From IMG/VR virus record IMGVR_UViG_2711768046_000005: a stretch of 35,930 nt of DNA. One strand, 5' to 3'. The stretch's first letter is position 1, and each line of letters starts with the position of its first letter. The position numbers and the translations under genes were made by a program. Positions 1,447 through 35,442 of this stretch are shown piece by piece. The notes under the pieces are model-generated. The model was not told the DNA's origin and did no database searches. It was given only the letters and a program-made list of their open reading frames with translations. Source of the stretch: a virus (Duplodnaviria; Heunggongvirae; Uroviricota; Caudoviricetes).

Positions 1447-1533
1447 GCTGAAAAACATAACCCATAAAATGCTAGCTGTACCAGGAACCACCTCCTTAGC
1501 CTGTGTAATCTCCCTTACACGGGCTTATTTTTT
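1447..1533 (+). ncRNA. cyaR: CyaR (RyeE) small RNA
   Basis: Sequence gctgaaaaacataacccataaaatgctagctgtaccaggaaccacctccttagcctgtgtaatctcccttacacgggcttatttttt matches my recollection of E. coli CyaR. It ends in a GC stem plus U-tract and sits immediately downstream of yegQ as in E. coli. Confidence 0.8.
1507..1533. repeat. attL core (27 bp, aatctcccttacacgggcttatttttt)
   Basis: Exact direct repeat of 35416..35442. It matches the reverse complement of the P2 att core as I recall it and overlaps the CyaR terminator. Confidence 0.8.
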
Positions 1534-1597
1534 ACGCGTAATTCAATGAAATAAAAGGATTTATTTCTGGTCACGTCCACACATTGACCACATCGAC

Positions 1598-1621
1598 AAA
1601 AAAGCCCCTCGACTGAGGGGC
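1598..1621 (-). terminator. Intrinsic terminator downstream of ogr (bidirectional hairpin)
   Basis: Stem gcccctc / loop gact / gaggggc, followed on the minus strand by a 6-nt U run. Lies 14 bp past the ogr stop. Confidence 0.6.
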
Positions 1622-1634
1622 TTTCTGTTTGTAA

Positions 1635-1853
1635 TTACATCCACATAATTTGCTGCCCTGACGGTAACGGGTGCGGCCTTACGGCGTGGACTTCTCCCGG
1701 CTTCACGATGTATCTCTGTACCGACTCATAGGTGATGAACGTGGCGCTGCAATTCACGTTCTGGCACTGGTGATAACGCTCTTTTGTCGTGTCAGTGATA
1801 TAGCGGCTTGTACGCGCATGTGCGGCATGCTGGCATAAAGGACAATGAAACAT
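1635..1853 (-). CDS. ogr: Late transcription activator Ogr (zinc-finger)
   Basis: 72-aa product from the internal ATG, MFHCPLCQHAAHARTSRYITDTTKERYHQCQNVNC..., with Cys-x2-Cys ... Cys-x4-Cys. Matches P2 Ogr length and sequence as recalled. Confidence 0.9.
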   Translation of the reverse strand: MFHCPLCQHAAHARTSRYITDTTKERYHQCQNVNCSATFITYESVQRYIVKPGEVHAVRPHPLPSGQQIMWM

Positions 1854-1934
1854 CGCGAGCACCTCTTCCGGTTTTGTTGATGGTGCCATTTTAGTTAATT
1901 TATCCTTATAAAACAAACAGATAAAATAAAAACA

Positions 1935-3098
1935 TCACTCATCATCTTCTGTTTCGTACTCCACATCAGAAAGCCTGACCTCAAGCTCTAAGGACGTCGT
2001 GAAGCCGCTATTATTCAGAAAATGTGTCACCTTAGTGATTGTCCAGTCCTGCTCGTCTATGACGCGCTTAAAGCCTGACACTTTGACCGGTATTTCCGTG
2101 TAAATATCTGCCCGACCGGTAGCCAGGCTGATGGAGAACTCCGCCACGCCCCGTTGCAGCTTATCCCACTTCGCCTGAGCGGCGCGCATGGCCTGCGCTT
2201 TCGTGGCATATACCGTGGTCAGGGCAAAAACGTTGTCAGCCTCACCGGCCATGTATTCACCTTCGCGCGCTTCCGGTACTTTTGGCGCTTTCTTCTGCGT
2301 GACTGGTTTCGCTTTCGGGTGCTCCAGTGCGCGCAGGTGTTTCTCTTTCTTTTTGCGTTTCAGTTTTACCTTCTGCTTTTGCGGCTTCGGGTCTTTGGTG
2401 TGAAGCCACTTTGCCGTTACGCCGGTATAGGCTCCACGGTCAGCAATCGCAAAATGATGACGGTCACCGTCGCTGCGGGTGATGGTGATCTGCGGGATTT
2501 TTTTACCGCTGGCCGTCACCCCATGCCCCGCTTTGAGAAACAGCAGTTTTCCCATTTTTACCGACACCTCACCGCCGTTGCGTTCAGCAAGACGGGTCAG
2601 GAATTTCACATCGAACTCCTGCGACTGGTCGATGTGCGGGATTTTAATTCCGGCCAGTGACGGAGCGACACTGGCTTCCAGCCTGTTACGGGAGGCGATC
2701 GCCTCAACAATCGCACCGAGCGTGGTGTCATGCCAGGAGCCTTCACGGCGGGAATTGAGCGTCCCGCGAAAATCTGCACTCCGGGCGCGGATGGTAACCA
2801 CATCCGGCGCGCCCCGGTGTTCAACCTCATCAACGGTAAATTTCCCTTTGCATACCAGGGCAAAACCTTTCCAGCCGATATACACCGTCAGGACAGCGCC
2901 ACGAACCGGCAGCCCGACCTGCCCGTCGGCATCGTTCAGTTCAATATCAAGCTGGTCAGCCTCAAAGCCCCGGTTATCCGTCAGGGTCATACTCATCAGA
3001 CGGTCGCTGATATTGCCGGTAATATCCCTGCTGTCGAGCATCAGCATGTAATCCGGCGTCAGCGTACTGCCTGCATCAAATGTCAGTGCATCCAGCAT
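1935..3098 (-). CDS. D: Tail protein D
   Basis: 387 aa, the same length as P2 gpD, at the collinear position next to ogr. Lys-rich central linker. Confidence 0.85.
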   Translation of the reverse strand: MLDALTFDAGSTLTPDYMLMLDSRDITGNISDRLMSMTLTDNRGFEADQLDIELNDADGQVGLPVRGAVLTVYIGWKGFALVCKGKFTVDEVEHRGAPDVVTIRARSADFRGTLNSRREGSWHDTTLGAIVEAIASRNRLEASVAPSLAGIKIPHIDQSQEFDVKFLTRLAERNGGEVSVKMGKLLFLKAGHGVTASGKKIPQITITRSDGDRHHFAIADRGAYTGVTAKWLHTKDPKPQKQKVKLKRKKKEKHLRALEHPKAKPVTQKKAPKVPEAREGEYMAGEADNVFALTTVYATKAQAMRAAQAKWDKLQRGVAEFSISLATGRADIYTEIPVKVSGFKRVIDEQDWTITKVTHFLNNSGFTTSLELEVRLSDVEYETEDDE

Positions 3099-3577
3099 TA
3101 TCCCGCCCCCGTCATATCCGTGAATTTAGTCGCCATACTGCCAGCCTTACCGATGAGCGATTCCGCCTGTTTACCGATATCGCCATAAAGCGCGGCCAGT
3201 GATTCATCAACGCGGGTGAGCGACAGCGTAAAATCAATTTTCCGGGGTGTGCCGTCTGCAAAGAAAATACTCCCTGTTTCACTCACCCTGCTGATGACAT
3301 ACATGCCGTAAATCATGCCAGTGCCATCCAGCAACGGCCACGCCCGGCCTTCCTCTGCCATCAGCCTGAGCGTGGTCATCGTCAGCTTTCCGCCGGTCAG
3401 TTCGGGATAAAGCACACCGGCAAGCGTCATGTTTTCCTCACCCACACCGAGAAACTGATAGGCATCCCGTTTACCAATACGGGAATTTGACGGCCAGCGA
3501 TAATCCGATTCACGTTGCATGGTCTGGTGCGGCAGCGTCTGGCGCATAAAAACAAACATCCCTAACGCGAGCATCAT
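3098..3577 (-). CDS. U: Tail protein U
   Basis: 159 aa, P2 gpU length and position. Start/stop overlaps D. Confidence 0.85.
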   Translation of the reverse strand: MMLALGMFVFMRQTLPHQTMQRESDYRWPSNSRIGKRDAYQFLGVGEENMTLAGVLYPELTGGKLTMTTLRLMAEEGRAWPLLDGTGMIYGMYVISRVSETGSIFFADGTPRKIDFTLSLTRVDESLAALYGDIGKQAESLIGKAGSMATKFTDMTGAG

Positions 3578-3591
3578 TTTTCGTCACCTCC

Positions 3592-6039
3592 TTAACCGTC
3601 ATGCATCATGCTGGCACGGGCGCGCGCACGTTTATCCCGCTCGTATTTTTCGAGCGCATCCTGTAACTGGCGGTCGAGCTGTGTTCCCGGTGCATTACCA
3701 CCCGGCAGGCTGATGTGATATTCGTTTTTACTCTGGTCTACATACGAGCGGCCAGCCGGTGCCGTGACCGGCTGGTAAGCCTGATAGCCTGCATAAGAGC
3801 TGGTCGCCGGAATATAACCACCTGTGCCATACGTGGCGGCATGAGTTCTGGCGGCAGTCTGGTCAAGTGCGTCAGACTCTTTGTTGATGACGCCGAGTTT
3901 TTCCAGTACCCAGTCAATACCGCTGCGCAGTTTGTTGAACGCATTAAGCGGCAGCATCAGCGCGTCAGCCAGTGCCTGCCCGAACATGACGCCCGTGTCA
4001 CGGCAACGGTTCAGGGTGTCCTGGGTGGCTTTGACCGGGGCAATCAGGTTTTTAAACCACTGCCACGCGGCCTGTAACTTTTCGCCCAGCCAGTCAAACA
4101 CCGGTTTCAGTGGCGAGAACAGCTCCCCCACCGGCGCAAATGCTGCTTTCAGCCCTTCAACCACACCACCAAAGAATGCGCTGACAGGCTCCCAGTATTT
4201 ACGGATAAGCAACGCCCCGGCGACAATGGCAGCCACCACAGCCACAACCGGCCAGCTAATAGCCCCGATGGCGGTCATAACAGCACTGCCAACCGTCGTG
4301 AAGATTGCCCCCATTGCGCCTGCTGCCGCGATGATGGCATTGATGCCGGTGATAACCGGCCAGGCTACAAGACCAATTGCACCGATGATGCCAATCAGCG
4401 CCAGCGCGCCACCGGCAATGAGGCCAATGGTTGACGCCAGTGATTTGTTTTTCTTGATCCAGCCGTCGAGTTTTAACACATACTTTGTGGCCGTCTGCGT
4501 GAGATTACGCAGTGCGCCTTCCTGCTGGTCAAACAGGTCAGTCCCCACCGCCTCATAAGCAGACTGAAACTCCTTAAAGTCACCGCCGAGGTTATCCTGC
4601 ATGATATTTACCAGCTCGGCGGTCTTCCCGTCTGAGGCTTTAAACGCAGCGGTCAGTTTGTCCAGCTTTCCGGTTGAGGCGGCAGTCATCAGCACGGCGG
4701 CGGCTGAGCTGGCTTCCTCCCCGAAAATGGTTTTCATGTATTCAGCCTGCTGGGCAGTACCGAGCCGGTTTTTCTCAAAACTGGCCTGCATTTCTTTCAG
4801 AATGGTAAATACTGGTCGGGTGTTTCCCTTACTGTCTGAGGTTTTCACGCCAAGCTCTTTGAGTGCATCCCATGCTTTTCCCGTCGGTGCCTGCAGGCGA
4901 CTTAACACGGCACGGCTTCCCGTCCCCGCCATTGAGCCTGTGATTTTTGCATCATGCAGCGCTCCGACCATTGCGGCGGTTTCTTCAATGCTGACACCGG
5001 CATTTTTTGCCACAGGTGCAGCATAGGTCAGCGCATCGCTCATACCGTCAAAATCGGCGGCGGTTTTGTTCATCGTCATGGAGAGAACATCCCCGATATG
5101 AGCGACCTTATCGTTTGAAAGCTGAAAGGCGGATTTCATCCCCATCAGCAGGGCAGCGTTTTCTTCCATCGTGCGACGGTTCGCCAGCGCCATATTCAGC
5201 GTGACCGGCGTTGCCGCCTGAATGGCATCAACATCCCCACCGGCTTTCGCAATAATAATCTGCGCACCGGCTGCATCATCTGCCGAGGCGGCGGTATTGT
5301 CGCCGAGCTGGCGCGCCTGTTTGCGTAGTGCAGCCATTTCGGCGGAGTCTTTTGCCACTCCGAGCACGGCCTGCAATTCTGAGTTTTTCTGCGCAAACTC
5401 ATAACCGGGCATCAGCAGCTTAACTCCGGCCATCGTTCCCGCCGCCGCAATCCCCACACCGGCAGCGCCCACCGAGGCCATATTTCCGGCCAGTTCCTTG
5501 CCTGCCTGATAACGCTGTTTGACTGCGTTAAGTTTTGCCTGTTGCGCACTGACACGCGCCAGCGCGTCGCGCTGACGGTTAAGCTGTGCGGTGGTTTCAC
5601 TGATACGGTTTTTCAGTCCCTGCTCATCATGTGCAAGATTGCGGGTATTAATTCCCACAGCGGCCAGTTCCCGTTGCTGGCGTTTAACGGAATCCGTCAG
5701 GTGGTTACATTTCGCCTGTAAGTCCTCCGCCGCACGCTTTGCGGATTCCAGCACTTTCGCCTGAGCACGGGTCGGACGTTCGGTGTTTTTAAACTGTGTG
5801 GCAAGGGCTTCGGCTTCCTGCCGTGCCTTTTCAAGTGCATGACCAGTCACGGCAAGCTGTGCGCTGGTCTTGCGAAATCCCTCAATACGGGATGCGTGAC
5901 CGTTCAGCTCGCGCAGTGATTTTTGTGTTTCCCGGATATCCCCCGACAGCGACTTACTCGCTGTGCGGATGGATTTAAACGGGCGGGATGCCTGGTCAAC
6001 AGCCCTGAGCAATACCTGTAATTTTACATTGTTACTCAT
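3592..6039 (-). CDS. T: Tail tape measure protein T
   Basis: 815 aa, P2 gpT length. Coiled-coil N-terminal half and Gly/Ala-rich hydrophobic segments typical of tape measure proteins. Confidence 0.9.
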   Translation of the reverse strand: MSNNVKLQVLLRAVDQASRPFKSIRTASKSLSGDIRETQKSLRELNGHASRIEGFRKTSAQLAVTGHALEKARQEAEALATQFKNTERPTRAQAKVLESAKRAAEDLQAKCNHLTDSVKRQQRELAAVGINTRNLAHDEQGLKNRISETTAQLNRQRDALARVSAQQAKLNAVKQRYQAGKELAGNMASVGAAGVGIAAAGTMAGVKLLMPGYEFAQKNSELQAVLGVAKDSAEMAALRKQARQLGDNTAASADDAAGAQIIIAKAGGDVDAIQAATPVTLNMALANRRTMEENAALLMGMKSAFQLSNDKVAHIGDVLSMTMNKTAADFDGMSDALTYAAPVAKNAGVSIEETAAMVGALHDAKITGSMAGTGSRAVLSRLQAPTGKAWDALKELGVKTSDSKGNTRPVFTILKEMQASFEKNRLGTAQQAEYMKTIFGEEASSAAAVLMTAASTGKLDKLTAAFKASDGKTAELVNIMQDNLGGDFKEFQSAYEAVGTDLFDQQEGALRNLTQTATKYVLKLDGWIKKNKSLASTIGLIAGGALALIGIIGAIGLVAWPVITGINAIIAAAGAMGAIFTTVGSAVMTAIGAISWPVVAVVAAIVAGALLIRKYWEPVSAFFGGVVEGLKAAFAPVGELFSPLKPVFDWLGEKLQAAWQWFKNLIAPVKATQDTLNRCRDTGVMFGQALADALMLPLNAFNKLRSGIDWVLEKLGVINKESDALDQTAARTHAATYGTGGYIPATSSYAGYQAYQPVTAPAGRSYVDQSKNEYHISLPGGNAPGTQLDRQLQDALEKYERDKRARARASMMHDG

Positions 6040-6459
6040 TCGTGTTTCCGCTTCGCCGGAGCGCCTTTTCGCGCCATGTGATGAGTTCGGTCAGGCTCAT
6101 GGGATACAGTTCTGATGGCGGCCAGTGAAATATCACTGCCACATCCGCCATCAGGTCATCGACCGAGAGATTTTTCGGAAACGTCACTGCACCGAGTTCG
6201 GCGACAAAAAACCGACCACCTTACCGGCCAGCGCCACAAGGTCAGGCAGTTCCAGCGCAGCGACTTCCTGCTCGGTCAGCATCGGTGCCGTCATGCGCGG
6301 CAGCACCTTAATCAGTGCATCGACTTCGGAGTTCGCGACCGCTGCCAGACTGACACCGCGCAGCGTCCCGGCATTGGGTTTCATCAGCGTGACCTGTTCG
6401 ATAACCTGCTCACCACGTTTGACCGGATTGTCCAGGGTAATGACATTTTCTTTGTTCAT
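6032..6459 (-). CDS. Tail assembly chaperone E+E', made by a programmed -1 frameshift at 6205..6211
   Basis: Hand translation: after GGT TTT TTG (G-F-L) a -1 shift continues VAELGAVTFPKNLSVDDLMADVAVIFHWPPSELYPMSLTELITWREKALRRSGNTNE to TAA at 6032..6034. Total is 142 aa, the P2 E+E' length. Confidence 0.7.
6184..6459 (-). CDS. E: Tail assembly chaperone E
   Basis: 91 aa, P2 gpE length and position upstream of T. Confidence 0.85.
   Translation of the reverse strand: MNKENVITLDNPVKRGEQVIEQVTLMKPNAGTLRGVSLAAVANSEVDALIKVLPRMTAPMLTEQEVAALELPDLVALAGKVVGFLSPNSVQ
6205..6211 (-). other. Slippery heptamer T_TTT_TTG for the E/E' -1 ribosomal frameshift
   Basis: X_XXY_YYZ heptamer in the E reading frame, 7 codons before the E stop. 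The -1 frame is open through to the T start region. Confidence 0.7.
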
Positions 6460-6515
6460 GGTTTTCTCACTTCTGAATCGGGGTTAACCGGTCAGCCAGG
6501 CTGACCGGATGAAAA

Positions 6516-7034
6516 TCACAGGCCGATATTGCGGCGGTGTTGCTCCAGCCGGTCGACGCCGTTCACCTTCTCAATCATGTTGATGGTGTCGATTTCGACC
6601 AGCTCCTTACCGTCCATCGTCAGCCGGAAATAGGTGCAGACCACGGAGATTTTCGACTCGGTGTCTTCTCCCTGTTTGCCCTCGCCGGTGTCGATTTCTT
6701 TCTGACGTCCACGCATGACCACCTCGACGGCCACCGTTTCGCCGGTATCGTCGCGCTGGTAAGAGCCTGCAAAACGAATCGGTACGGCATCCACACCGGT
6801 TGCGGCGTAAAGCTCCCAGATAACCGAATCCGGGAAGCCACCGAGCGACCACTCCATTGACAGCGCATCGTCATCAAGGCCGAGGTCTACCGGTGCGCTG
6901 CCGTTCATCCCCGCACCGCGATAGTTTTCGAGCTTACGGGTCAGTTTTGGTAGCGTGACGGACTTCGCGACGCCCTGATAGCTGTAGCCGTTCAGAAAGA
7001 CGTTCATTAACTTGAGTTTGCGCGGCATTGCCAT
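6516..7034 (-). CDS. FII: Tail tube protein FII
   Basis: 172 aa, P2 gpFII length and position. Confidence 0.9.
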   Translation of the reverse strand: MAMPRKLKLMNVFLNGYSYQGVAKSVTLPKLTRKLENYRGAGMNGSAPVDLGLDDDALSMEWSLGGFPDSVIWELYAATGVDAVPIRFAGSYQRDDTGETVAVEVVMRGRQKEIDTGEGKQGEDTESKISVVCTYFRLTMDGKELVEIDTINMIEKVNGVDRLEQHRRNIGL

Positions 7035-7046
7035 CGGTCAGGCTCC

Positions 7047-8237
7047 TTAATTGCTGTTAACCGAGGTGACCAGATTTGCCAGGTATTTATCGGTAATACG
7101 CTGGCGCAGGGTCAGGTTTTCAAGAGGAGGCACCGGTGTATAGTCGTAGTCGATATACAGTTTTCCGGCCTTGAGGGTTTCCGCATCGTTGGATTCTTCG
7201 CTGAACCAGCAGGTCGCATCCACGATATAGCCGTTTGTTTTCAGCTCACGGAATTTGGCATTGATGCCGTCAACGATGTCGCGAATCAGCGTTGCGGTGA
7301 TGGGCTTGTCCACCGCCCACATGTGCGCCTCAGCCATCGTGTCGGCCATCACCTGCGCGGTGCGGGTGTAGTTTTCAAAGAGGAACAGCGGGTCATCAGA
7401 GCAGGTACGGTTACCCCAGAAGCGGAAACCGTCGCGGCGAATCAGCGTTGTGACGCCTGCCTCGTTCAGCAGGTCAGCATCGGTGCCGGACTCCTGCAAA
7501 TCCCAGAATACAGATGCGCTGATGCCGGTAACACCGTTTACCCCGACGTTGGACAGCGTTTTATGCCAGCCCTGCTCCTGGTCGATTTTAGCACGCAGCC
7601 CCAGCGCACGGGCGGTGGCATACGCGGTGGCGGTAGTGCTGCTGACCGTATCCCATGCGAGGAAATCCGGCCAGATGACCATCAGCTCACGCTGGCTGAA
7701 ATTCTGGCGGTAGGCTTTCACCTCGGAAATGGTTTTACAGCCCCATGCGCTGATATACCCGAAAGCGCGCAGCTTCTGACAGACTGATGCCAGTGCAACA
7801 GCCACCTCTTTGGTGTCCAGTCCCGGCACGCCGAGAATACGCGGTTTAACACCGGTTACCGACTCTGCCGCCAGCAGGGCTTTCAGTCCGGTATACTGAC
7901 CGTTTTCGTCAGTGGTGCCGATGATATTGGAAACGGTCTGCGCGAGTTTCGTTTCTTCGTCGTCGCCGGTGCCGTCTTCAACACGCACGACAACGGTGAC
8001 CGGTTTTGACTGGTCAGCGATGGCCTGCAACGATGCCGCCAGCGTGCCTTTTTTACCGGCCTTTGCAATTGCGCTCTGCACATTGGTAATCAGCACCGGT
8101 TTATTGAGGGGGAAGGTTTCCGCATCCGCATCGCTGGCCGTGCAGACCATGCCGACAATGGCAGTGGATACAGTGGAAATGACGCGGGTGCCGTCGTTAA
8201 TCTCCAGCACCTGCACGCCGTGATGATAGTCACTCAT
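7047..8237 (-). CDS. FI: Contractile tail sheath protein FI
   Basis: 396 aa, P2 gpFI length and position. GGAG Shine-Dalgarno upstream. Confidence 0.9.
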   Translation of the reverse strand: MSDYHHGVQVLEINDGTRVISTVSTAIVGMVCTASDADAETFPLNKPVLITNVQSAIAKAGKKGTLAASLQAIADQSKPVTVVVRVEDGTGDDEETKLAQTVSNIIGTTDENGQYTGLKALLAAESVTGVKPRILGVPGLDTKEVAVALASVCQKLRAFGYISAWGCKTISEVKAYRQNFSQRELMVIWPDFLAWDTVSSTTATAYATARALGLRAKIDQEQGWHKTLSNVGVNGVTGISASVFWDLQESGTDADLLNEAGVTTLIRRDGFRFWGNRTCSDDPLFLFENYTRTAQVMADTMAEAHMWAVDKPITATLIRDIVDGINAKFRELKTNGYIVDATCWFSEESNDAETLKAGKLYIDYDYTPVPPLENLTLRQRITDKYLANLVTSVNSN

Positions 8238-8334
8238 CCGTTTAACTCCGTGGTTAATGGGTGCAACTATTTTCTGTTGGGCAGTGCATGAGACGCTATT
8301 TGACCTGACTGGTCAGTGGATGAAACAACAGATT

Positions 8335-8361
8335 AAAGAAAAGGCGGGCAATTCGCCCGCC
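8335..8361 (-). terminator. GC-rich hairpin with a minus-strand U-tract (putative intrinsic terminator) in the FI upstream region
   Basis: ggcgggc / aattc / gcccgcc perfect 7-bp stem, followed on the minus strand by TTTTCTTT. Confidence 0.4.
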
Positions 8362-8414
8362 TGTCCTGATTTGAACTCACTCATTTTCCGACTGACAATT
8401 TACATAGCCCAAAA

Positions 8415-8439
8415 GTTATCAAATCTGACAGTCTGCTTT
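8415..8439. repeat. Left boundary repeat of cargo locus 1 (gttatcaa-atctgacagtc-tgcttt)
   Basis: Shares gttatcaa...gtctgcttt in direct orientation with 10223..10240. Its 11-mer atctgacagtc is present inverted at 10253..10263. Confidence 0.5.
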
Positions 8440-8751
8440 GAGTGAGAAGCAGACATTTACTTAACCGGATAGCAAGAGACTTCATACTACAGCTCATACA
8501 TCATGGTTGATCCCGGAGTTTTCAGCAATGGAAATTGCCCACATGATCGTACCGTAACCACATTAGAAGCAGGTTCACTTTGTGAATTTTGATTGTGTCA
8601 CCCTATCAGTTTTGAATTTTTATAAAAAATATTCGCAAATTTGTGAATTATGAGAGACATACGAGCATGGACAACCAATGTTACTTTCATACACAATGAA
8701 GCAACATGATAAAAATACACTGACTTTAGTAAGTAAATTTAGGAGATTGCG

Positions 8752-20688: not shown

Positions 20689-20691
20689 CGG

Positions 20692-25654: not shown

Positions 25655-25659
25655 ACATC

Positions 25660-25841: not shown

Positions 25842-25884
25842 CGCCCGCTTCATGGGTCGGTTTTAATGCAGTTGTATTTAATGG

Positions 25885-25915
25885 AAAAAGCCCTCCAGGA
25901 CTGGAGGGCTTTTCT
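25885..25915. terminator. Bidirectional intrinsic terminator (end of the kinase operon; backup for Q)
   Basis: Perfect 10-bp stem agccctccag / ctggagggct, flanked by AAAA upstream and TTTCT downstream. Lies 55 bp past the kinase 2 stop. Confidence 0.65.
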
Positions 25916-25969
25916 ATTAGAGTTCGTAAAATGCTCATGCAAATTCACGCGTTATGCTGCAAAAAACAA

Positions 25970-27037: not shown

Positions 27038-28098
27038 AACACCACCTCCGGATGGGAAAGGTCAAATGTAATGAAGACCCGCTCTTTTCTTGGCCGAGAA
27101 GTCTCTCCCAGAATAATAACACATGAATCAGGCAAAATATTATATTGCTTTGCAGCTATATTATTCACATACACCTCACCACTTAAACTCGATATATAAA
27201 ACTCTGAACCAGAATATTTCACCTCAATAGTCCCGACCCCTGAATTATTAAAAGCCGCAGATTTATTTGTTGAAGAAATGATGACGGGTGGAGTGTTATC
27301 AGAGATTAACAATGCTCTATGAGAGTTGTAGAGAACGAATTTTTTTAGAGTCTGACACACATCAGCCATATCAGGTCTCTCACAAGGATTCGTATCTAAA
27401 CATTGGAAAAGCAATTCTTTTACCTGAGTTGGTAACTGTATATTAGAATTATCAAAAGGATTAGACAATAATTTTTTGGGTAAAACTCTCATTTCCGGTG
27501 GTAGTGGGGTCTTAGCCAAAAACATGGCCGTTACAGCAAAAGCATATGTATCTATGGATTTTGTAAACGCTACTTGATGTAAAAATAATTCAGGTGCAGC
27601 ATATGTTGGGGTTCCTTTAAAACCTATTGTATTAGCTTCATCAACATTTCTAGATAGTCCGAAGTCATAAATCTTCACTACTCCCTCAGAATCAATTTTC
27701 ATGTTCCCAGGCTTGATATCCCTATGAATAATATCATGAGAATGTATCTCAGAAATACCCGAAGATATTTGCCACAAAATTTTAATCAAATCTTCAGAAT
27801 TTAATATGCGATCCTCTACTTCCAATAATGAAGGTCCGTCAACATACTCTTCGACTATAGCAATTCCTTTACCTTGATAATTAATAACATCATAAAGCTC
27901 TACTACATGTTTTGATCTTAATTTCATCAATGCTGATAACTCATCCATCATTCGAGGAGAATCATCAGGATTACTTATGGACTTTATAGCGACAAATCTT
28001 TCGAGGTGAGTATCCAAGCATTTGATCACGCAACCAAATCCTCCCGAAGCCTCTTCTTCAGTCCTCTTATATCTTGCAGGGAGAGTAAAATTAGTCAT
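27034..28098 (-). CDS. Hanks-type Ser/Thr protein kinase with C-terminal FHA-like region (second gene of the cargo operon)
   Basis: 354 aa. Kinase motifs SGGFGCV, VAIK, HRDIKPGN, DFG and GTPTYAAPE are intact. C-terminal aa 262-345 have an FHA-like pattern (SLSGEVYVNN...ILPDSCVIILGE) but lack the canonical Arg/His. AAGGAG ribosome-binding site; 8-nt overlap with the phosphatase gene. Confidence 0.85.
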   Translation of the reverse strand: MTNFTLPARYKRTEEEASGGFGCVIKCLDTHLERFVAIKSISNPDDSPRMMDELSALMKLRSKHVVELYDVINYQGKGIAIVEEYVDGPSLLEVEDRILNSEDLIKILWQISSGISEIHSHDIIHRDIKPGNMKIDSEGVVKIYDFGLSRNVDEANTIGFKGTPTYAAPELFLHQVAFTKSIDTYAFAVTAMFLAKTPLPPEMRVLPKKLLSNPFDNSNIQLPTQVKELLFQCLDTNPCERPDMADVCQTLKKFVLYNSHRALLISDNTPPVIISSTNKSAAFNNSGVGTIEVKYSGSEFYISSLSGEVYVNNIAAKQYNILPDSCVIILGETSRPRKERVFITFDLSHPEVVL

Positions 28099-29257
28099 CT
28101 TTATCTCCTTTAGTGGAGTTTTTCTCAGAGAATGAAATATCTAACTGTGAAATATTATCTAACTTATCATTATTGTTAGCTTCGATAACATTCCTTCCCT
28201 CATCACTCTTTATATTACTATTTTTTTTCTTTGTACGTGATTTCCTTTTCGATACATTTTTTTTGTTAGAAATTTCATTACTGCATTCTAACTCAGTAAC
28301 TTTTCTATCAATAACATTTTCAACCGTAGCTGAGTTAGGTATATCTAACGGCGCAGGTTGCACGCTAATTACTTTCATCTCACCAAAAGGATCCCATAAA
28401 TTAATTACATCCCCAGATGATACATCCAAAGCACTTAGGATGTTCGAAATCTCAACTACCGCAATCGACGCATTATCAAATCCACCAAACCAACTAGCTA
28501 GATCTATAACTCTTTTAGCGAACACTCCAGTATTATTGGAGTGAGCATATAATTTTCTCAAATTATTACTGTCAATGGTATGAGCACCATCTGAAGTTAA
28601 TGCAACCACCCCAGGTACGAGCCGAATATCGTGAAAATGTATCTCAAGAACACCATCAAGACCTATAAACTGTACTAACTCGCCACCTAACCTAGAATCA
28701 ATAACACCTGAGTCACTACCAAGATGCTCATTATATTTCTTTGCCAATACAGCTAATGTATCATCCTCACTAATTTGTTTTATGTGTTCAGCATTAATGG
28801 AATATATGCGACTATCCCCGACATTTATTGCTGTAATGTTATCGGAGTCATCTACAGCTAAGGCAGATAACGTAGCCCCACCGTTCCCATTATATACTTT
28901 CAAAACCGATTCATTTGCTTTTAAAACGGCGATTTCAAGACATTGTCTAATTGGCAAGCCTGAGTGTTTAATTATCTCGGTAAAAAAAGATGATACGGTC
29001 AATGAAGCAGCATTCGCTCCCCCTTCCATCCCCCCCATACCATCTGCTAAAGCGATGACAATCATGTCCTTATTCTTACTAAAAGGACGAAATTTTAATA
29101 CAGCTACCCGGTCTTGGTTCTCTTTCCTAACTAAACCTATGTCTGTAGCAATAGCTGCAGGTAGCATAGATACTCTTCGTACAGATGAAGAGATATTTTT
29201 TCTATGCAGCCAAGCGTGTATCTGTTCATGAAGGATCTCGTAAGAGTCTCGACTCAC
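28091..29257 (-). CDS. PP2C-family (PPM) Ser/Thr phosphatase with Lys/Asn-rich low-complexity C-terminal tail (first gene of the cargo operon)
   Basis: 388 aa from a GTG start with AGGAGG upstream; an alternative ATG start lies at 29167. PPM motifs TDIGLVRKENQDR, ALADGMGG, NVGDSRIY, LTSDGAHT and DNASIAVV are present. The tail (aa 272-388) is rich in K, N, S and D. Confidence 0.8.
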   Translation of the reverse strand: MSRDSYEILHEQIHAWLHRKNISSSVRRVSMLPAAIATDIGLVRKENQDRVAVLKFRPFSKNKDMIVIALADGMGGMEGGANAASLTVSSFFTEIIKHSGLPIRQCLEIAVLKANESVLKVYNGNGGATLSALAVDDSDNITAINVGDSRIYSINAEHIKQISEDDTLAVLAKKYNEHLGSDSGVIDSRLGGELVQFIGLDGVLEIHFHDIRLVPGVVALTSDGAHTIDSNNLRKLYAHSNNTGVFAKRVIDLASWFGGFDNASIAVVEISNILSALDVSSGDVINLWDPFGEMKVISVQPAPLDIPNSATVENVIDRKVTELECSNEISNKKNVSKRKSRTKKKNSNIKSDEGRNVIEANNNDKLDNISQLDISFSEKNSTKGDKDD

Positions 29258-29478
29258 AGCGCCTCCTCAAGCAAGCATTTCTCCGAAGCTATAGATTACA
29301 AAACACTAACGGCAATTCCTAGCATTACCCACTCAATTCCATTAGAAAACTGACGTAGTACAGTTAGTTGAATATTATTGTGATGACGAATGCCAATCCT
29401 CTGATCACGCTGATTACAATATCACAACTCCCCGCTCTCCGATTCACAGTATTCAGTGATACAGAATATCACCTCGTA

Positions 29479-31764
29479 CTATATACATCGTTGATTTATT
29501 GGAAGCCCCGGCCACTCATCAACAACCGGATATGTAAATTTTTTCTCGCCATATGCCACCCTCGCACCTCGTGCTAGTACATCCAGCTCCCACCGTTCCG
29601 GCGTGATGCCATGCTGTGCGAGGTCAAACCGGATACGCGATATCTGGTCGCGCTGCGATTTAGTCAGCCTTGCCGATGGCGCAATTTCATTAGGTTTTAA
29701 CGGGCCTCCGTTTCTCTGCTGACGATTTGGTGTTCTCAGGCCGTGTTTTAATGCGCCCCTGAGCGCCCTCACTACATCCGGGTCATTCCATTCGATAACA
29801 CCTTCATCAACCAGATTAAGTACTGCTGCGGCGTGCTCAGAAGGTGTGGGAGCCGGTAACGAAGTATCACCACCAGTGAGCTTTCCACAGTTATTGACAG
29901 GACTCCGAGGCGCGACGATGCCGCTTTTTAAAGTCAAAGGCTCAACGACCGGAACTTTCGGCACAATGCGCCAGTCCGTCGTTCTGGTGATATGAATATG
30001 ACGCGCGCCGAGATGCGGCGCGTAAATGCCGACCACTCTCTCGACTTCTTCCTCGTACTCGTTAACTTCATCCGACGGGCTACGGGCGACTCTGACAGTC
30101 TGACAATCGCGCGGGACATTTGCCCCACCCTGCGCGCTGATATACAACGCAAAATCACCACTGTCTGCGGCGGCGCGTGCAGCCTCGACGCGCTCGTCAA
30201 ACTCATCAGCAATGCTGACGCCGCGCGGCAATTTGCGTAGTTCACGGTAAGCCCCCATTGTCGGCAGGCCAACCGTTTTAAATTGCGGGATGCGCCACGT
30301 TGACGCCCATGCGGTAACAGCCGCTGCAGTGTCTTTCAGCGGCCTGCCGGTGTCGTTATCGAGCTGACCATCCAGTGCATAGCCGTCGATGTTTTTTGAA
30401 ATGTATTTCGCGATATATCCCGCAGCACCGCCCCGGTTAAGGTGTTTTGCCTGAAAACGGTTTCGCGCGGCTCCTCTTTCGTCGCCATCCTCTTTGAGCG
30501 CATAGCGACGCATGATTTCGATAATCTGGTTACGCTGGCGTGAATTACAAAAAAGCATCATATGCCAGTGCGGCGTTCCGTCGTGGTGTGGCTCGACGAC
30601 ACGCAAACCGTAGACCTGTAAATCATTATCCTTGAATGCCGTGCGCATCAGGCTCCAGATACGGCAGAGATAACGCTGCGCATCCTTTGGATTAAATGCC
30701 TCATCGTTCCAGCCGTGATTAAGCTGCACGGTTTTACTTTCGCCTTTTCCTACCTGACGTGTCGGGTGATACTTTGACGGCGCGGTCAGCGTGATAAACA
30801 TCCCCACATCACCCTCTGCAGCGGCGTAACGCTCAATACCGGCAATGGTGTTCATCAGCTCCATCCGGCGAATTTCAGGATTAGAAATACTGCCCATCAC
30901 CTTACTGATAAGGTCGATGCGCTCGCCGGTTTCCCTGTTTTCAAGGTCACACGATTTAAGAAATTCCAGATTTGCCTGGCGGCGCGCACGCACATCACGA
31001 ATGGCGTGTTTACTGGCATAAGGAGAACGGTCTTTATTGACCTCCCCGACAGCTATCAGTAACGCTTCATGCCAGCGCATACGCTGGCCTTTAAGCTGAT
31101 GAGTCCACCACTCATCGTTAAACAGACGGGCAATGGCAGAATATGCCTGCCTCGTGGTCATCTGTCCTTTACGGTATTTTTTCCAGTAGAGCGGGGAAAT
31201 ATTGAAAGCACGTGCAGCGCCAGCAACATGACCATACAGGTGAGCCTGCGCCTCATCCGTAAACAGCGATTCTTTTTCACCATGCGCATCAACCCATGCA
31301 TCGCAGAGTTCCTCATACATCATGAAAAGCTGCGATGAGATACGGGCGGCAAACTTTTTCAGCTCCTTGTCATTCATTCCCGGCAGGCGCGCATAGTGGT
31401 CACGCTCTGCCAGAAACAGCAACGACGCGTCGGTGTTCATTTCATGGCGCTGATTCACACGCTCAATGCGCGGCCATAAACGACGCTGAAAAGTAGATGT
31501 GAGGAAATAAAACCCGTGCACCGGGCTTTTATTGCGCCGGATGTAGTCATAGCGTGAAGTAAACAGCGAGCGCAAAAAGTAAGGCAGGCGGTTAATCGTG
31601 GATAAAACACCTTGCACCTGACGCATCTCGTCACGTGTAAGAGGTCTTTCGCGCCCGACAGCCTCGCGTGGCGCGTTCCATGCATAAGCACCGGTAAATG
31701 CCTTACCGGTGCCTGCGGTAAATGCTGACGGAGGGACAAAACACCCGGAGGCTTTAACGGCCAT
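29479..31764 (-). CDS. A: Replication initiation protein A (rolling-circle nickase)
   Basis: 761 aa from the internal ATG (MAVKASG...), P2 gpA length. Conserved HxH nickase region (EPHHDGTPHWHMM) and active-site Tyr region (AGYIAKYISKNIDGY). Confidence 0.9.
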   Translation of the reverse strand: MAVKASGCFVPPSAFTAGTGKAFTGAYAWNAPREAVGRERPLTRDEMRQVQGVLSTINRLPYFLRSLFTSRYDYIRRNKSPVHGFYFLTSTFQRRLWPRIERVNQRHEMNTDASLLFLAERDHYARLPGMNDKELKKFAARISSQLFMMYEELCDAWVDAHGEKESLFTDEAQAHLYGHVAGAARAFNISPLYWKKYRKGQMTTRQAYSAIARLFNDEWWTHQLKGQRMRWHEALLIAVGEVNKDRSPYASKHAIRDVRARRQANLEFLKSCDLENRETGERIDLISKVMGSISNPEIRRMELMNTIAGIERYAAAEGDVGMFITLTAPSKYHPTRQVGKGESKTVQLNHGWNDEAFNPKDAQRYLCRIWSLMRTAFKDNDLQVYGLRVVEPHHDGTPHWHMMLFCNSRQRNQIIEIMRRYALKEDGDERGAARNRFQAKHLNRGGAAGYIAKYISKNIDGYALDGQLDNDTGRPLKDTAAAVTAWASTWRIPQFKTVGLPTMGAYRELRKLPRGVSIADEFDERVEAARAAADSGDFALYISAQGGANVPRDCQTVRVARSPSDEVNEYEEEVERVVGIYAPHLGARHIHITRTTDWRIVPKVPVVEPLTLKSGIVAPRSPVNNCGKLTGGDTSLPAPTPSEHAAAVLNLVDEGVIEWNDPDVVRALRGALKHGLRTPNRQQRNGGPLKPNEIAPSARLTKSQRDQISRIRFDLAQHGITPERWELDVLARGARVAYGEKKFTYPVVDEWPGLPINQRCI

Positions 31765-32029
31765 ATGAGCCAAAAGCCTCTGAACAACGCTTGCTGAGTT
31801 GCTCAACCTGCGCGTTTAAATCAGCAAAAGATTTTGCGCTTCCGGTCAGAATATCGTGATGCATCAGGCCGGAAACGAGCTGGCCTAATTTCGGGTAATA
31901 ACCAACCACCGCCAGCCATTCCTGACCGGCGTTTTTACCGCTTTCCGCTCTCTTTTTCTCGTGGAGAATAAACTGAAAGCTGTCACTGGTAACGACATAA
32001 CGTTCGCCAATTTCAATACGAATACTCAT
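31754..32029 (-). CDS. Small early protein (P2 orf83-like)
   Basis: 91-aa ORF immediately upstream of A with an 11-nt overlap. Position as in the P2 early operon. Confidence 0.55.
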   Translation of the reverse strand: MSIRIEIGERYVVTSDSFQFILHEKKRAESGKNAGQEWLAVVGYYPKLGQLVSGLMHHDILTGSAKSFADLNAQVEQLSKRCSEAFGSYGR

Positions 32030-32250
32030 GCCGTTCTCCGGTAATGTTTGTTTTTTGCTTCAAAGACTGACTGACAGGAAACACAACGCGTGGCTGACGG
32101 ATAAGCCGCACGACGGGCAGCAGGTATTGGCGCGTCACACTCTTCGCAAACCAGCGCAGAAACACCGCAATGTTTTACCCTTGCCGCGTTAATCTGGCGC
32201 TCCAGTAATTCAGCCTGTTGTTCCTGAATAAAATCCACGTTGTCCGGCAT
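32026..32250 (-). CDS. TraR/DksA-type C4 zinc-finger protein (P2 orf82-like)
   Basis: 74 aa with CEECDAPIP...CVSCQ four-Cys motif. Coupled to neighbouring ORFs. Confidence 0.65.
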   Translation of the reverse strand: MPDNVDFIQEQQAELLERQINAARVKHCGVSALVCEECDAPIPAARRAAYPSATRCVSCQSVFEAKNKHYRRTA

Positions 32251-32555
32251 TACCAGCTCCTTTTGTCGTTCAGCTTCTTAAATTCATCAGCGCAATAACT
32301 GGCGAGTTCTGTCGTTAATTTTGTCAGTTCATCCACTGAGGAAATTTGCTTGTGGAATACAGCGCGTTTAACAAGTAAATTGACCACATCAGACAGGAGG
32401 TTTAATTCACTCTGATAAATCGCGATAACAGATTCAGTTATTTCGCGCTTCTCTTTATCAATACCAAGTTGAATAAGAGACAAATCACCATTTTTCATAA
32501 CGGCGATTTTTAAGGCGTTATTCAGTAATACAACCGAACGAGAACAGGACATCAA
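32250..32555 (-). CDS. Small early protein (P2 orf81-like)
   Basis: 101-aa ORF in the early operon with an ATGA overlap to the upstream ORF. Confidence 0.55.
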
Positions 32556-32776
32556 AGCACCTCCCCGCGAGACAATCCGATATTGTGAAATTTTTCCGAC
32601 TCCTGACTGAGCAGCTCAACTATCTCCACGCGGGATAACTCCGCCTTTGTGATGTGGCGAATCATGGCGTCAAGATGAGAAGAAAAGCGCGTCGCAGCGT
32701 CGGCCTGTGCTTCGGTTCTGGCCTGTTGCAGCAGTAATGCGTATTTACCGCACTGATTTTCAGAAACTGTATGCAT
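32552..32776 (-). CDS. Small early protein (P2 orf80-like)
   Basis: 74-aa ORF in the early operon, downstream of B. Confidence 0.55.
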
Positions 32777-32839
32777 GACTTTCTCCAGGCAAAAAGAAGC
32801 CCCGCACGATTAAGTGCGTTAAAAACTCTGGTTAATTAC

Positions 32840-33340
32840 TTAATGCAGATATTGCTCTGGTTTTACCGACGTCAGAATTGTCGGTGCATACTCAAACAGG
32901 CTGAATAATTCACGTAATGCACGGAATAAAGCATCACGCCAGTAACATGACTCTTCATTAATTCGCCAGTATGGCTGGTTAAATTCTTTTTCAGTCAATC
33001 CGGCATGCATAAATAAAGTACGACGCTGACTGACTGTTAAAAAACTAATATATGCATACTCACTTGCACCGACCTGACGACGTTTTGAGAATGCCCCACG
33101 CAATTCATCAATTGCACATACCAGTCGTTCACGTTCGACGTCGTTCATTTCTTCAAAACGCATCGTTGCGTGACGCTGTTTTAACTGCGCATGAAAGCAA
33201 ACTGTTAGCCGTTCGCGCTCCATCATCTGATTATAATAATCACATGTATCCTGCCAGCGAGGAACGGCAAGATGCTTACCAATTATCCGGCGCATAGCTG
33301 CTGGCTGTTTTTCAACGAGATTGAGCGTCATCACTGTCAT
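32840..33340 (-). CDS. B: Replication protein B (helicase-loader-like)
   Basis: 166 aa from the third ATG, with GGAGGG 7 nt upstream. P2 gpB length and position. Confidence 0.8.
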   Translation of the reverse strand: MTVMTLNLVEKQPAAMRRIIGKHLAVPRWQDTCDYYNQMMERERLTVCFHAQLKQRHATMRFEEMNDVERERLVCAIDELRGAFSKRRQVGASEYAYISFLTVSQRRTLFMHAGLTEKEFNQPYWRINEESCYWRDALFRALRELFSLFEYAPTILTSVKPEQYLH

Positions 33341-33531
33341 TTCCATACCCTCCGGCTTTTCAGAAAGGTCAGAGCCTTTTTTAACGGACTCTGTTTTTTG
33401 GTGCGGATAATGATTCCCTTACGCCCCTTACCGTGGGTGATGGTGAAGTCAATCGCCCTGGGGCTTTCGTTACGCAGTAACTGAGCAATACAACGAGGCT
33501 CATTCATACGGTTCTCCTTAACGTGGTTCAC
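33337..33531 (-). CDS. Small early protein (P2 orf78-like); start uncertain
   Basis: 64-aa basic ORF between cox and B. Confidence 0.45.
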   Translation of the reverse strand: MNHVKENRMNEPRCIAQLLRNESPRAIDFTITHGKGRKGIIIRTKKQSPLKKALTFLKSRRVWK

Positions 33532-33793
33532 CGAGACCTAACCACATCAACCAGCCGTCACGAATCTCTTTAGGTCGGCTTTCATAAGCCAGTTTTAGTC
33601 CGTTATTCCATGCCGGAAGGTATACCCAATATTCACCTGCACGACCTGAAGCTGATTGTGGATCGGTCATATCAATTACAGGCAGCTTTCCTTTATCGAT
33701 CATCCGACGAACCGCTCCTGTCGATTTTCCTATTAGTTTTGCGAACTCCTGATAAGGAATCGCATCAGTCATGAGTGTTACTTGCTTGCTCAT
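33518..33793 (-). CDS. cox: Cox (excisionase and early-operon regulator)
   Basis: 91 aa (MSKQVTLMTDAIPYQEFAKLIGKSTGAVRRMIDKGKLP...), P2 Cox length. First gene of the leftward early operon, divergent from C. Confidence 0.9.
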   Translation of the reverse strand: MSKQVTLMTDAIPYQEFAKLIGKSTGAVRRMIDKGKLPVIDMTDPQSASGRAGEYWVYLPAWNNGLKLAYESRPKEIRDGWLMWLGLGEPR

Positions 33794-33830
33794 GTCGTCC
33801 TCTAGCCCTCATGAATTGCGTTTAATGTCT

Positions 33831-33836
33831 TATAAT
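33831..33836 (+). promoter_or_regulatory. Putative Pc -10 hexamer (TATAAT) for the C-int transcript
   Basis: Perfect TATAAT on the plus strand about 70 bp upstream of the C ATG. The -35 is weak. Position implies face-to-face overlap with the Pe transcript, as described for P2. Confidence 0.4.
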
Positions 33837-33874
33837 GCCTTTTAGTGCCCACATCCAAGCACTAAACAATCTAC

Positions 33875-33914
33875 ATCTAAACTAAATACTATTGAGATCT
33901 AAACACCATGTCAA
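33875..33914 (-). promoter_or_regulatory. Pe early promoter (-35 TTGACA at 33909..33914, -10 TAGTAT at 33886..33891) with two C-repressor operator half-sites ATCTAAAC at 33875..33882 and 33897..33904
   Basis: Two identical 8-bp direct repeats 22 bp centre to centre flank the -10 of a minus-strand sigma70-like promoter (17-bp spacer). This is the operator architecture described for P2 C repressor. Confidence 0.55.
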
Positions 33915-34207
33915 ACACGATAAGCGAGAAGATAGTCTTAATGCGAAAATCAGAGTATTTGAGCAGACAACAACTTGCTGATTTAACAGGGGTTCCGTAT
34001 GGCACGCTGAGTTACTATGAAAGTGGTCGTTCAACACCTCCAACAGATGTCATGATGAACATCCTGCAGACCCCACAATTCACCAAATACACTTTATGGT
34101 TCATGACCAATCAGATCGCTCCTGAGTCCGGGCAAATTGCGCCCGCTCTCGCACACTTTGGGCAAAACGAAACAACGTCGCCCCACTCCGGTCAAAAGAC
34201 TGGTTAA
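33908..34207 (+). CDS. C: Immunity repressor C
   Basis: 99 aa (MSNTISEKIVLMRKSEYLSRQQLADLTGVPYGTLSYYESGRSTPP...), P2 C length, helix-turn-helix region. Upstream of int. Confidence 0.9.
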   Translation: MSNTISEKIVLMRKSEYLSRQQLADLTGVPYGTLSYYESGRSTPPTDVMMNILQTPQFTKYTLWFMTNQIAPESGQIAPALAHFGQNETTSPHSGQKTG

Positions 34208-34322
34208 CAATTCATCGTGAATATATTCATCACAAGTGCCTACTATTGGTGGCTAAATTTCAGCCACCACGAAAAAAGCGATTAGTAGTCGCAAAAAAAC
34301 ACACCACTCGGAGGGTTTTCTG

Positions 34323-35336
34323 ATGGCAATCAAAAAACTCGATGATGGTCGATATGAAGTGGACATCCGCCCTACTGGACGTAATGGAAAACGCATCCGT
34401 AGGAAGTTTGATAAGAAAAGCGAAGCTGTCGCTTTCGAGAAATACACGTTGTACAACCACCACAATAAAGAATGGCTATCAAAACCAACAGACAAGCGAC
34501 GTCTGTCGGAGCTGACACAGATCTGGTGGGATTTAAAGGGTAAACACGAAGAGCATGGGAAATCTAATCTTGGAAAAATTGAAATCTTCACAAAAATAAC
34601 GAATGACCCATGCGCATTTCAAATTACGAAATCGCTTATCAGCCAGTACTGCGCCACCCGAAGAAGTCAGGGTATTAAACCTTCGAGTATCAATCGTGAT
34701 TTAACATGTATTAGCGGCATGTTTACAGCCCTGATTGAAGCGGAGTTATTCTTTGGTGAGCACCCTATCAGAGGGACAAAAAGGCTTAAGGAGGAAAAAC
34801 CAGACACAGGCTATCTCACGCAGGAAGAAATTGCCTTACTGCTTGCTGCTCTTGACGGCGACAACAAAAAGATTGCGATTCTTTGCCTGAGTACTGGAGC
34901 ACGTTGGGGAGAAGCAGCTCGTTTGAAAGCAGAAAATATCATCCATAACCGCGTCACGTTTGTTAAAACGAAAACAAACAAACCACGCACCGTCCCGATC
35001 TCAGAGGCTGTTGCCAAAATGATCGCGGATAACAAACGAGGTTTTTTATTCCCTGATGCTGATTACCCTCGCTTCAGACGAACAATGAAAGCAATAAAAC
35101 CGGATTTGCCAATGGGGCAAGCCACACATGCACTAAGGCACAGCTTTGCCACTCATTTCATGATTAATGGAGGAAGTATTATCACGCTACAACGGATACT
35201 AGGTCACACGCGGATTGAGCAAACTATGGTTTACGCTCATTTTGCGCCAGAGTACCTTCAGGACGCCATTTCTCTTAATCCGCTAAGAGGTGGTACTGAG
35301 GCCGAGAGTGTCCACACAGTGTCCACAGTAGAGTAA
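34323..35336 (+). CDS. int: Tyrosine integrase
   Basis: 337 aa, P2 Int length. Catalytic signature ARWGEA ... HALRHSFAT ... LGH ... VYAH. Ends 80 bp before attR. Confidence 0.9.
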   Translation: MAIKKLDDGRYEVDIRPTGRNGKRIRRKFDKKSEAVAFEKYTLYNHHNKEWLSKPTDKRRLSELTQIWWDLKGKHEEHGKSNLGKIEIFTKITNDPCAFQITKSLISQYCATRRSQGIKPSSINRDLTCISGMFTALIEAELFFGEHPIRGTKRLKEEKPDTGYLTQEEIALLLAALDGDNKKIAILCLSTGARWGEAARLKAENIIHNRVTFVKTKTNKPRTVPISEAVAKMIADNKRGFLFPDADYPRFRRTMKAIKPDLPMGQATHALRHSFATHFMINGGSIITLQRILGHTRIEQTMVYAHFAPEYLQDAISLNPLRGGTEAESVHTVSTVE

Positions 35337-35415
35337 CGTTTAAGGGCTTTCAGTGGTAATTTATGCCGCTCAAACCCGCATTGTACCGTTGAAAGCCCCT
35401 ACTGGTGACACCCTA

Positions 35416-35442
35416 AATCTCCCTTACACGGGCTTATTTTTT
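35416..35442. repeat. attR core (27 bp, identical to attL)
   Basis: Exact direct repeat of 1507..1533, adjacent to int. Confidence 0.8.

Follow-up and report, generated by a model that had tools for sequence, protein, structure and literature searches.

A complete P2 prophage in the cyaR 3´ end with AT-rich modules of candidate defence function in three exchange slots

Introduction

When a P2-like prophage carries AT-rich DNA at the positions that P2 uses for fun(Z), orf30, and tin and old, does that DNA belong to the core of the phage lineage or is it interchangeable cargo, and what might it do for its carrier? This question is raised by IMG/VR record IMGVR_UViG_2711768046_000005, a 35,930-nt stretch of Caudoviricetes DNA (the window, in what follows, at its full length), in which a first-pass annotation made from the letters alone had described an apparently intact P2-like prophage in the 3´ end of the small RNA (sRNA) gene cyaR. 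We find that the element, 33.9 kb long, is a P2-type (Peduovirus) prophage that is genetically complete and has the immunity of P2 itself. It is likely, in our overall reading, that its conserved backbone carries AT-rich modules in the FI/G, S/V and A/Q slots which are exchanged by recombination and have candidate defence roles.

P2 hotspots are known as reservoirs of anti-phage systems (PMC9122126; PMC9519451; PMC13586616). Two of them, the gpA-gpQ and fun slots, have been published as defence hotspots with experimental support, and both have yielded validated systems (PMC9122126; PMC9519451). A 2026 survey of 1,511 P2 genomes described further hotspots, one of them within the tail genes, and defence loci that swap very rapidly between near-identical cores (PMC13586616).

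Results

A complete P2 backbone in the cyaR 3´ end

Aligned with P2 (NC_001895) by blastn, the prophage is collinear in gene order at an overall nucleotide identity of about 97%, as had been proposed. Five backbone blocks (1507-8453, 10224-10890, 11596-15446, 16476-25841 and 29507-35501) match P2 at 96-98% identity, except for 10224-10890 at 88%, and a match to P2 cosR at 25823-25870 adjoins the block that ends at 25841. The three gaps relative to P2 are the cargo blocks, 8454-10223 (cargo 1), 15447-16475 (cargo 2) and 25871-29506 (cargo 3).

By tblastn, 37 of 37 P2 backbone proteins are full length, ungapped and at 92-100% identity except for tail fibre H, and no backbone open reading frame (ORF) contains a frameshift or stop. 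C, Cox, Ogr, O, K, Y, FII and Orf78 are 100% identical to their P2 counterparts, and the integrase (Int), which had been called intact, is full length and 99.7% identical. The first-pass statement that every structural, lysis and replication ORF has P2 length therefore needs correction only for H, which has 724 aa against 669 in P2, with 72% identity and a diverged C-terminus. The P2 genes fun(Z), orf30, orf91, tin and old were not found in the window by tblastn. Different, AT-rich genes had been predicted at the Z/fun, orf30 and tin/old positions, and this is what we observe, with a GC content of 37.5% for cargo 1, 34.7% for cargo 2 and 37.8% for cargo 3 against 54.2% for the backbone. The window thus holds the collinear backbone with the P2 gene set by which a P2-like (Peduovirus) phage is recognized.

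The cis-acting sites follow the same pattern. The C-cox switch region (Pe, Pc, O1 and O2; 33794-33907) is identical to P2 25891-26004 at 114 of 114 positions, operators included, so that the switch suggested earlier was correctly called and, with C and Cox both at 100%, the immunity is that of P2. The Int P and P´ arms, the Cox-binding region and the pO/pP activator site are exact, the Int-binding P arm at 1569-1596 (minus strand) matching P2 24293-24320, and the ori nick region has one mismatch. At the promoter pF the allele differs from that of P2 but likewise has TGT-N12-CCA. The E/E´ slippery site, also anticipated, is exact at 6189-6214, and the -1 frameshift product E+E´ is intact at 142 aa.

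The att core is a perfect 28-nt direct repeat, AATCTCCCTTACACGGGCTTATTTTTTA, one nucleotide longer than first counted, which contains the exact 27-nt P2 attP core. Its copies lie at 1507-1534 (attL) and 35416-35443 (attR), giving a prophage length of 33,909 bp against 33,593 bp for P2. The Rfam CyaR model (RF00112) matches 1445-1530 on the plus strand over its full length (1-85) with 100.7 bits, the gathering score being 47. The attL core overlaps the 3´ end of cyaR, and the phage-supplied core therefore rebuilds the sRNA terminator. Int-mediated recombination inserted the prophage into the 27-nt core, at the terminator of cyaR between yegQ and yegR; such site-specific integration with a duplicated 27-nt core is itself a hallmark of P2-like phages.

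The three loci are interchangeable modules

A total of 5,426 complete E. coli genomes were searched for the cargo and the backbone. A P2-like P-Q region is present in 1,763 of them (2,076 places), whereas cargo 1 occurs in 44, cargo 2 in 16 (6 of these near-identical) and cargo 3 in 14; a single genome, S1-ZIM-01-A, has all three together. Relatives hold other genes at the cargo slots, and in vB_EcoM-720R8 the S-V slot is empty, with V and S approximately 100 bp apart. The three loci are variable, rare and interchangeable cargo, in agreement with the first-pass annotation, and are not core genes of this lineage, the alternative against which that view had been set.

How the modules move can be read from a sister prophage at the same site in E. 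coli A3024. Window positions 1-25878 match the A3024 locus at 418-26295 with 51 mismatches and no gaps (99.8% identity), including cargoes 1 and 2. Directly after cos, A3024 has a different A-Q module comprising a ComEC/Rec2-family protein and two hypothetical proteins. Window positions 29507-33771 then correspond to A3024 29429-33693; the early region is 95.3% identical and the immunity segment is different. The recombination joint between the two prophages falls at cos or the hotspot. Because identity to A3024 switches to other cargo right after cos, we infer that the modules are exchanged by homologous recombination in conserved flanks and not by transposition.

Cargo 2 and an RNxxxH protein in the S-V slot

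Cargo 2 (15447-16475, plus strand), in the orf30 slot, has no P2 homology and holds a single gene (15530-16273, plus strand) for a 247-aa protein. It also replaces the pV promoter region and, with a terminator-like hairpin at 16327-16305, the O-operon terminator. The P2 pV promoter region falls inside the exchanged S-V segment, and a perfect TGT-N12-ACA dyad stands upstream of V in the new sequence. The swap unit brings its own late promoter for V (15447-15530) and its own O-operon terminator, and therefore includes essential backbone cis elements. Homology of the 247-aa protein to P2 Orf30 was considered and rejected (BLASTP E=0.77; phrog_12680, annotated as of unknown function, versus phrog_2407).

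A profile search with the 247-aa protein returned 331 representative clusters at E<=0.001. Across 128 sequences with a mean identity of about 18%, the only invariant residues are N75, R126 and H131. N127 is conserved in at least 90% of a 43-sequence set and, with R126 and H131, makes up an R-N-x3-H motif of HEPN type; the family has the conserved Rx4-6H motif of the HEPN RNase superfamily. AlphaFold2 gave an unusable model with 6 sequences (predicted local distance difference test score, pLDDT, of 55), and the 128-sequence alignment was hence used, which yielded pLDDT 95.2 and a predicted template modelling score (pTM) of 0.90 for a structure made of long helices and, at 138-157, a beta-hairpin insert. 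With regard to context, the S-V slot of a more distant P2-like phage likewise holds a 51%-identical homologue. A distant homologue lies 23 nt downstream of an MmeI-type restriction-modification (RM) enzyme and another is found beside SNase, SocA_Panacea and Eco57I-type genes; a third context was uninformative.

From this motif and the predicted fold, it is possible, if doubtful, that the 247-aa protein is a HEPN-like abortive-infection RNase. It counts against such an activity that no member of the family matches any Pfam HEPN or PADLOC model. The protein and 43 relatives gave no meaningful match in Pfam, PADLOC, NCBIfam or PDB sequence searches, and Foldseek searches of the model against PDB and BFVD (viral models) found nothing significant. 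We regard it as a serious possibility that the protein is not an enzyme at all and has, as a helical protein, a structural or regulatory role such as superinfection exclusion or the binding of DNA or protein, in which case the HEPN likeness of RNxxxH would be coincidental; the invariance of N75, R126 and H131 has to be set beside that reading.

The more ambitious proposal is that these proteins, which form about 330 clusters at 50% identity and go undetected by Pfam, PADLOC and NCBIfam, constitute an undescribed single-gene anti-phage family of HEPN-like RNases with N75/R126/H131 as the catalytic site. In this scheme, a single-gene protein with an all-helical core and these three invariant residues may act in abortive infection. 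We put the proposal forward tentatively and consider it rather unlikely as a whole; if it is true, the orf30 slot would be a third bona fide defence hotspot of P2.

Cargo 3 and a KKP operon in the A-Q slot

Cargo 3 (25871-29506, minus strand) replaces tin and old, has no P2 homology, and gives Pfam PP2C_2 and Pkinase matches. Its three genes, all on the minus strand, encode a pfpC-like PP2C phosphatase (28091-29257; 1167 bp, 388 aa, GTG start), a pfkB-like Ser/Thr kinase (27034-28098; 1065 bp, 354 aa) and a pfkA-like Ser/Thr kinase with a CSD tail (25970-27037; 1068 bp, 355 aa). The genes overlap or abut, the PP2C gene is preceded by a GAGGAGG ribosome-binding site, and a terminator-like hairpin (25902-25889, minus strand) follows the operon just before cos. 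The orientation of the operon is that of gene A and it takes the place of orf91, which sets it apart from old and tin in P2. The replication gene A departs from P2 in its final 7 codons (29479-29506) and orf91 is missing, which puts the left edge of the A-Q exchange within the end of gene A.

The published definition of KKP (kinase-kinase-phosphatase) is a triplet of genes of 900-1300 bp in the order PP2C, Pkinase, Pkinase, and >90% of its clusters reside in temperate phages, P2 and P4 among them (Guo et al., 2024; PMC11341870). Three adjacent, co-oriented genes of precisely these classes and sizes are what we find here, and we identify cargo 3, as judged by its domains and gene order, as a predicted KKP module, a published prophage defence and lysogeny-control system. 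PP2C residues 34-269 align to solved bacterial PP2C phosphatases and keep the DGMGG, VGDSR, SDG and DN metal-binding motifs. Both kinases, read in translation, retain the GxGxxG G-loop, VAxK, HRDxKPxN, DFG and APE, and the PP2C and both kinases are thus predicted to be catalytically competent. E. coli S40, named as a KKP host in a published supplementary table (PMC11341870), has the block at 100% identity. The S40 block is very likely the catalogued S40 KKP, the prophage coordinates in the table differing from the RefSeq position.

Several results weigh against this picture. Kinases of PfkA type have a C-terminal cold-shock domain (CSD) with a GFI/A motif; here the tail of the pfkA-like kinase matches Pfam CSD at E=0.0041 with 17.4 bits, below the 27-bit cut-off; the sole PDB matches of this tail are cold-shock domains that align YGFI and VFFH, which is weak but consistent. 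Kinases of PfkB type end in an FHA domain; here the 105-aa tail of the middle kinase has no Pfam match at E<=10 and no FHA chain among its PDB matches, and a word-index search with that tail alone found nothing. As for expression, sigma-70 promoter scans round all three cargoes gave nothing above the shuffled expectation, and no promoter could be called in the 221-bp spacer upstream of the KKP operon; that KKP is expressed in a repressed lysogen is our assumption.

In published work, the KKP kinases are the toxin and the phosphatase the antitoxin, and the E. coli KKP of EC039 protected against T4, the Gp59 protein of which bound and inhibited its phosphatase (PMC11341870). By the mechanism described there, the PP2C phosphatase of cargo 3 would restrain two toxic Ser/Thr kinases. 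Inhibition of the phosphatase by a protein from an infecting phage would release them, and their unchecked phosphorylation would abort the infection. A further role of the module in modulating the activity of prophages or satellites is possible.

Other readings of the kinases were rejected. PADLOC matches to PD-T4-6, mad6, MkoA and PglW span the kinase domain only, which speaks against MADS, BREX and Mokosh; the NCBIfam scores for MAD6 (128 versus a cut-off of 460) and PglW (69 versus 990) are far too low, and the window holds no MADS or BREX partner genes.

Two further observations concern the occurrence of the KKP block in sequence records. In the RefSeq records of complete E. coli assemblies NZ_CP145671.1, NZ_CP074120.1 and NZ_CM129037.1 it lies at 2259-5894, each record beginning inside P2 gpA, 2,258 nt before KKP; rotation software probably took the phage replication gene for a chromosomal start marker. 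In E. coli NDM2 the block is found both on the chromosome and on a 43-kb plasmid-typed record, NZ_CP083887.1, which could be an excised or circular P2 form or an assembly duplicate.

Cargo 1 and an FRG-domain protein in the fun(Z) slot

Cargo 1 (8454-10223, plus strand) lacks P2 homology, and its sole gene (8752-10086, plus strand) encodes a 444-aa FRG-domain protein. The Pfam FRG match (PF08867; 2.8e-22) scores 79.9 bits against a cut-off of 25, placing the protein in the family, and residues 166-440 match the whole profile of the PADLOC candidate PDC-S15 (6.7e-99). Residues 1-165 have no match in Pfam or PDB. The phage family phrog_4962 spans the full length of the protein, and full-length relatives therefore exist in phages. 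Published work assigns FRG to the ART superfamily and predicts it to be an NADase-type effector in prokaryotic immunity (PMC9503650). The cargo 1 protein would, on this prediction, consume NAD+ or ADP-ribosylate a target upon infection.

Are the cargoes defence genes?

The first-pass annotation had counted at least three candidate defence functions and suggested a PADLOC run on the window. The count holds to different degrees. Cargo 3 belongs by its gene content to an experimentally characterised family. Cargo 1 is a database candidate, called as PDC-S15 by PADLOC. Cargo 2 has no annotation at all, and its candidacy comes from a motif, an inconclusive fold match and genomic context.

It is conceivable that the cargoes are not primarily anti-phage. 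KKP might be mainly a regulator of lysogeny or satellites or an addiction (toxin-antitoxin, TA) module, and the FRG and 247-aa proteins might be selfish stabilisation or host-physiology genes. In its first description KKP regulated co-resident Pf prophages and was a type VII-like TA system (PMC11341870), the A-Q slot of some P2 relatives carries non-defence cargo such as cytolethal distending toxin, and our search of the literature found no experimental test of, or phenotype for, FRG or PDC-S15. We nevertheless judge this explanation improbable in view of the T4 protection by the EC039 KKP, the experimentally validated defence systems that the A-Q and fun slots have each yielded, and the RM- and TA-rich neighbourhoods of distant cargo 2 homologues. 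Candidate defence roles for the modules remain our preferred interpretation.

Immunity, cos and viability

The prophage had also been said to look inducible, and mitomycin C induction had been suggested on that basis. This does not follow. P2 is the prototype of the non-inducible temperate phages, with a repressor that has no RecA cleavage site (PMC5322425), and the prophage should fall into the non-SOS-inducible class because its C repressor is 100% identical to that of P2. The early region is collinear with P2, and there is therefore no extra tum gene of the 186 type inserted. In other words, intact does not mean inducible: the prophage would be expected to ignore SOS induction, and release would be only spontaneous, if its cos variant is tolerated.

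The cos-like site reported earlier is present, with one private substitution. The 19-nt cohesive-end sequence (25823-25841) reads GTGCTTTCCCCACCTCGCC here and GTGCTTTCCCCGCCTCGCC in P2, identical at 18 of 19 positions, the difference being a G>A at 25834. Neither P2 nor two other P2-like records have this substitution, and even the A3024 prophage, at 99.8% identity, has the canonical cos. In IMG/VR the variant 19-mer matched 0 contigs and the canonical one at least 120, and S1-ZIM-01-A is the sole 100% match over 25796-25870 among the complete E. coli genomes searched.

This substitution might disable packaging, which is a further caveat on viability, and it could also be a sequencing error. 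If the point mutation does block packaging, the element would be a recently immobilised (cryptic) prophage, now a fixed accessory island that supplies its host with three modules. That the variant is missing from relatives, IMG/VR contigs and every other complete E. coli genome searched fits such an outcome, as does the fact that P2-type prophages are not SOS-inducible anyway. We give this explanation little weight. No ORF has a frameshift or stop, all but H are intact at 92-100% identity, and the remaining cis sites that were checked are exact or near exact relative to P2. A single substitution in cos alters both strands equally, so that the cohesive ends stay complementary, and no data mark position 25834 as essential.

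Other features of the prophage and its flanks

Most of the window is occupied by recognizable P2 operons, full length throughout. On the minus strand, ogr and the F operon (D, U, T, E/E´, FII and FI; 1638-8237) are 97.5-100% identical to P2, and the baseplate genes I, J, W and V (13031-15446) 97-99.7%. Genes S, R, lysC/B/A, K, Y, X, L, M, N and O on the minus strand and P and Q on the plus strand fill 16478-25654 at 95.7-100%. They are followed, beyond cargo 3, by the early operon (A, orf83, orf82, orf81, orf80, B, orf78 and cox; 29479-33793, minus strand) at 95-100%. The repressor gene C (33908-34207) and the integrase gene (34323-35336) share the plus strand at 33908-35336.

The tail fibre genes, G for assembly and H for the fibre itself (10317-13020, minus strand), are a fourth variable region, in the C-terminus of H and in G. 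The receptor-binding end of H is diverged; the C-terminal part of the gene has a lower GC content and no P2 nucleotide match at 10891-11595, and G, 92% identical to P2, has diverged to match. This region probably sets host range. Within H there is also a direct repeat of 76 nt (12295-12502), its copies 83% identical and separated by 132 nt.

To the left of the prophage lies the host gene yegQ (trhP; 1-1362, plus strand), annotated as yegQ in the 99.8%-identical E. coli A3024 and with the same layout in K-12. To the right is yegR (35613-35930, minus strand), annotated at the aligned position in A3024 and K-12. K-12 carries at the same site a cryptic P2 remnant, PR-X, with ogrK and yegZ.

The host flank right of attR (35425-35930) contains a diverged copy of the P2 Int P arm at 35462-35515, 70% identical to 1557-1610, and a partial att core, AATCTCCCTT, at 35505. 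A second, recent P2 insertion was rejected as its source, K-12 having the same sequence beside yegR, where it sits beyond the PR-X remnant (K-12 locus 2813-3307). The sequence is an old relic of the conserved yegR-proximal flank, outside the present prophage.

Discussion

What this locus shows is a known phenomenon, correctly described. Both the P2 hotspots and the presence of KKP in P2 prophages are already published, and the novelty of the finding is accordingly low; current understanding of P2 hotspots or KKP is unchanged. Only the RNxxxH family of the orf30 slot offers a fresh lead, and the private mutation in cos is a minor curiosity. The prophage is nevertheless a natural test bed, since a small element with P2 immunity holds three different modules in three known swap slots, and the A3024 sister differs mainly after cos, which makes modular exchange directly visible. 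Two of its products are candidates for cloning: the FRG/PDC-S15 protein, which has an additional N-terminal domain, and the RNxxxH protein.

The individual modules resemble characterized or catalogued systems to different extents. Cargo 3 has the gene order, single-strand arrangement and gene sizes of KKP (PfpC/PfkB/PfkA), and a CSD-like tail with the GFI motif. As with published KKP, its setting is a P2 prophage and its position lies between gpA and the portal gene. An FHA domain in the middle kinase, part of the KKP definition, is not detectable by sequence here. Its kinases also resemble single-kinase defence systems of the PD-T4-6/Stk2 type and MAD6 of MADS, with PADLOC kinase-domain matches of 1e-50 to 1e-55; unlike these systems, cargo 3 pairs two kinases with a phosphatase, and the matches are confined to the kinase domain. 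Cargo 1 shares the PDC-S15/FRG (PF08867) profile over residues 166-440, and differs from PDC-S15 in its extra N-terminal domain of approximately 165 aa.

The cargo 2 protein has in common with HEPN abortive-infection and toxin RNases (for example the HEPN-MNT toxin 7ae2) the R-N-x3-H motif, a predicted helical-bundle core and the small single-gene format, and its family is found, as theirs is, in mobile-element and RM/TA neighbourhoods. It differs from them in having no Pfam HEPN profile match, a Foldseek similarity that is not significant, and the beta-hairpin insert at 138-157.

With P2 itself (NC_001895), the prophage shares gene order, the 37 backbone proteins, the att core, the Int arms, the Cox sites, the C-cox switch and the E/E´ frameshift. 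It differs in the replacement of fun(Z), orf30, orf91, tin and old, in the diverged H C-terminus and G, in the pF and pV alleles, and in one cos substitution. Compared with the P2 defence hotspots described to date (Rousset 2022; Vassallo 2022; NAR 2026), the present prophage is the same in kind, and it is the combination of its cargoes that is uncommon.

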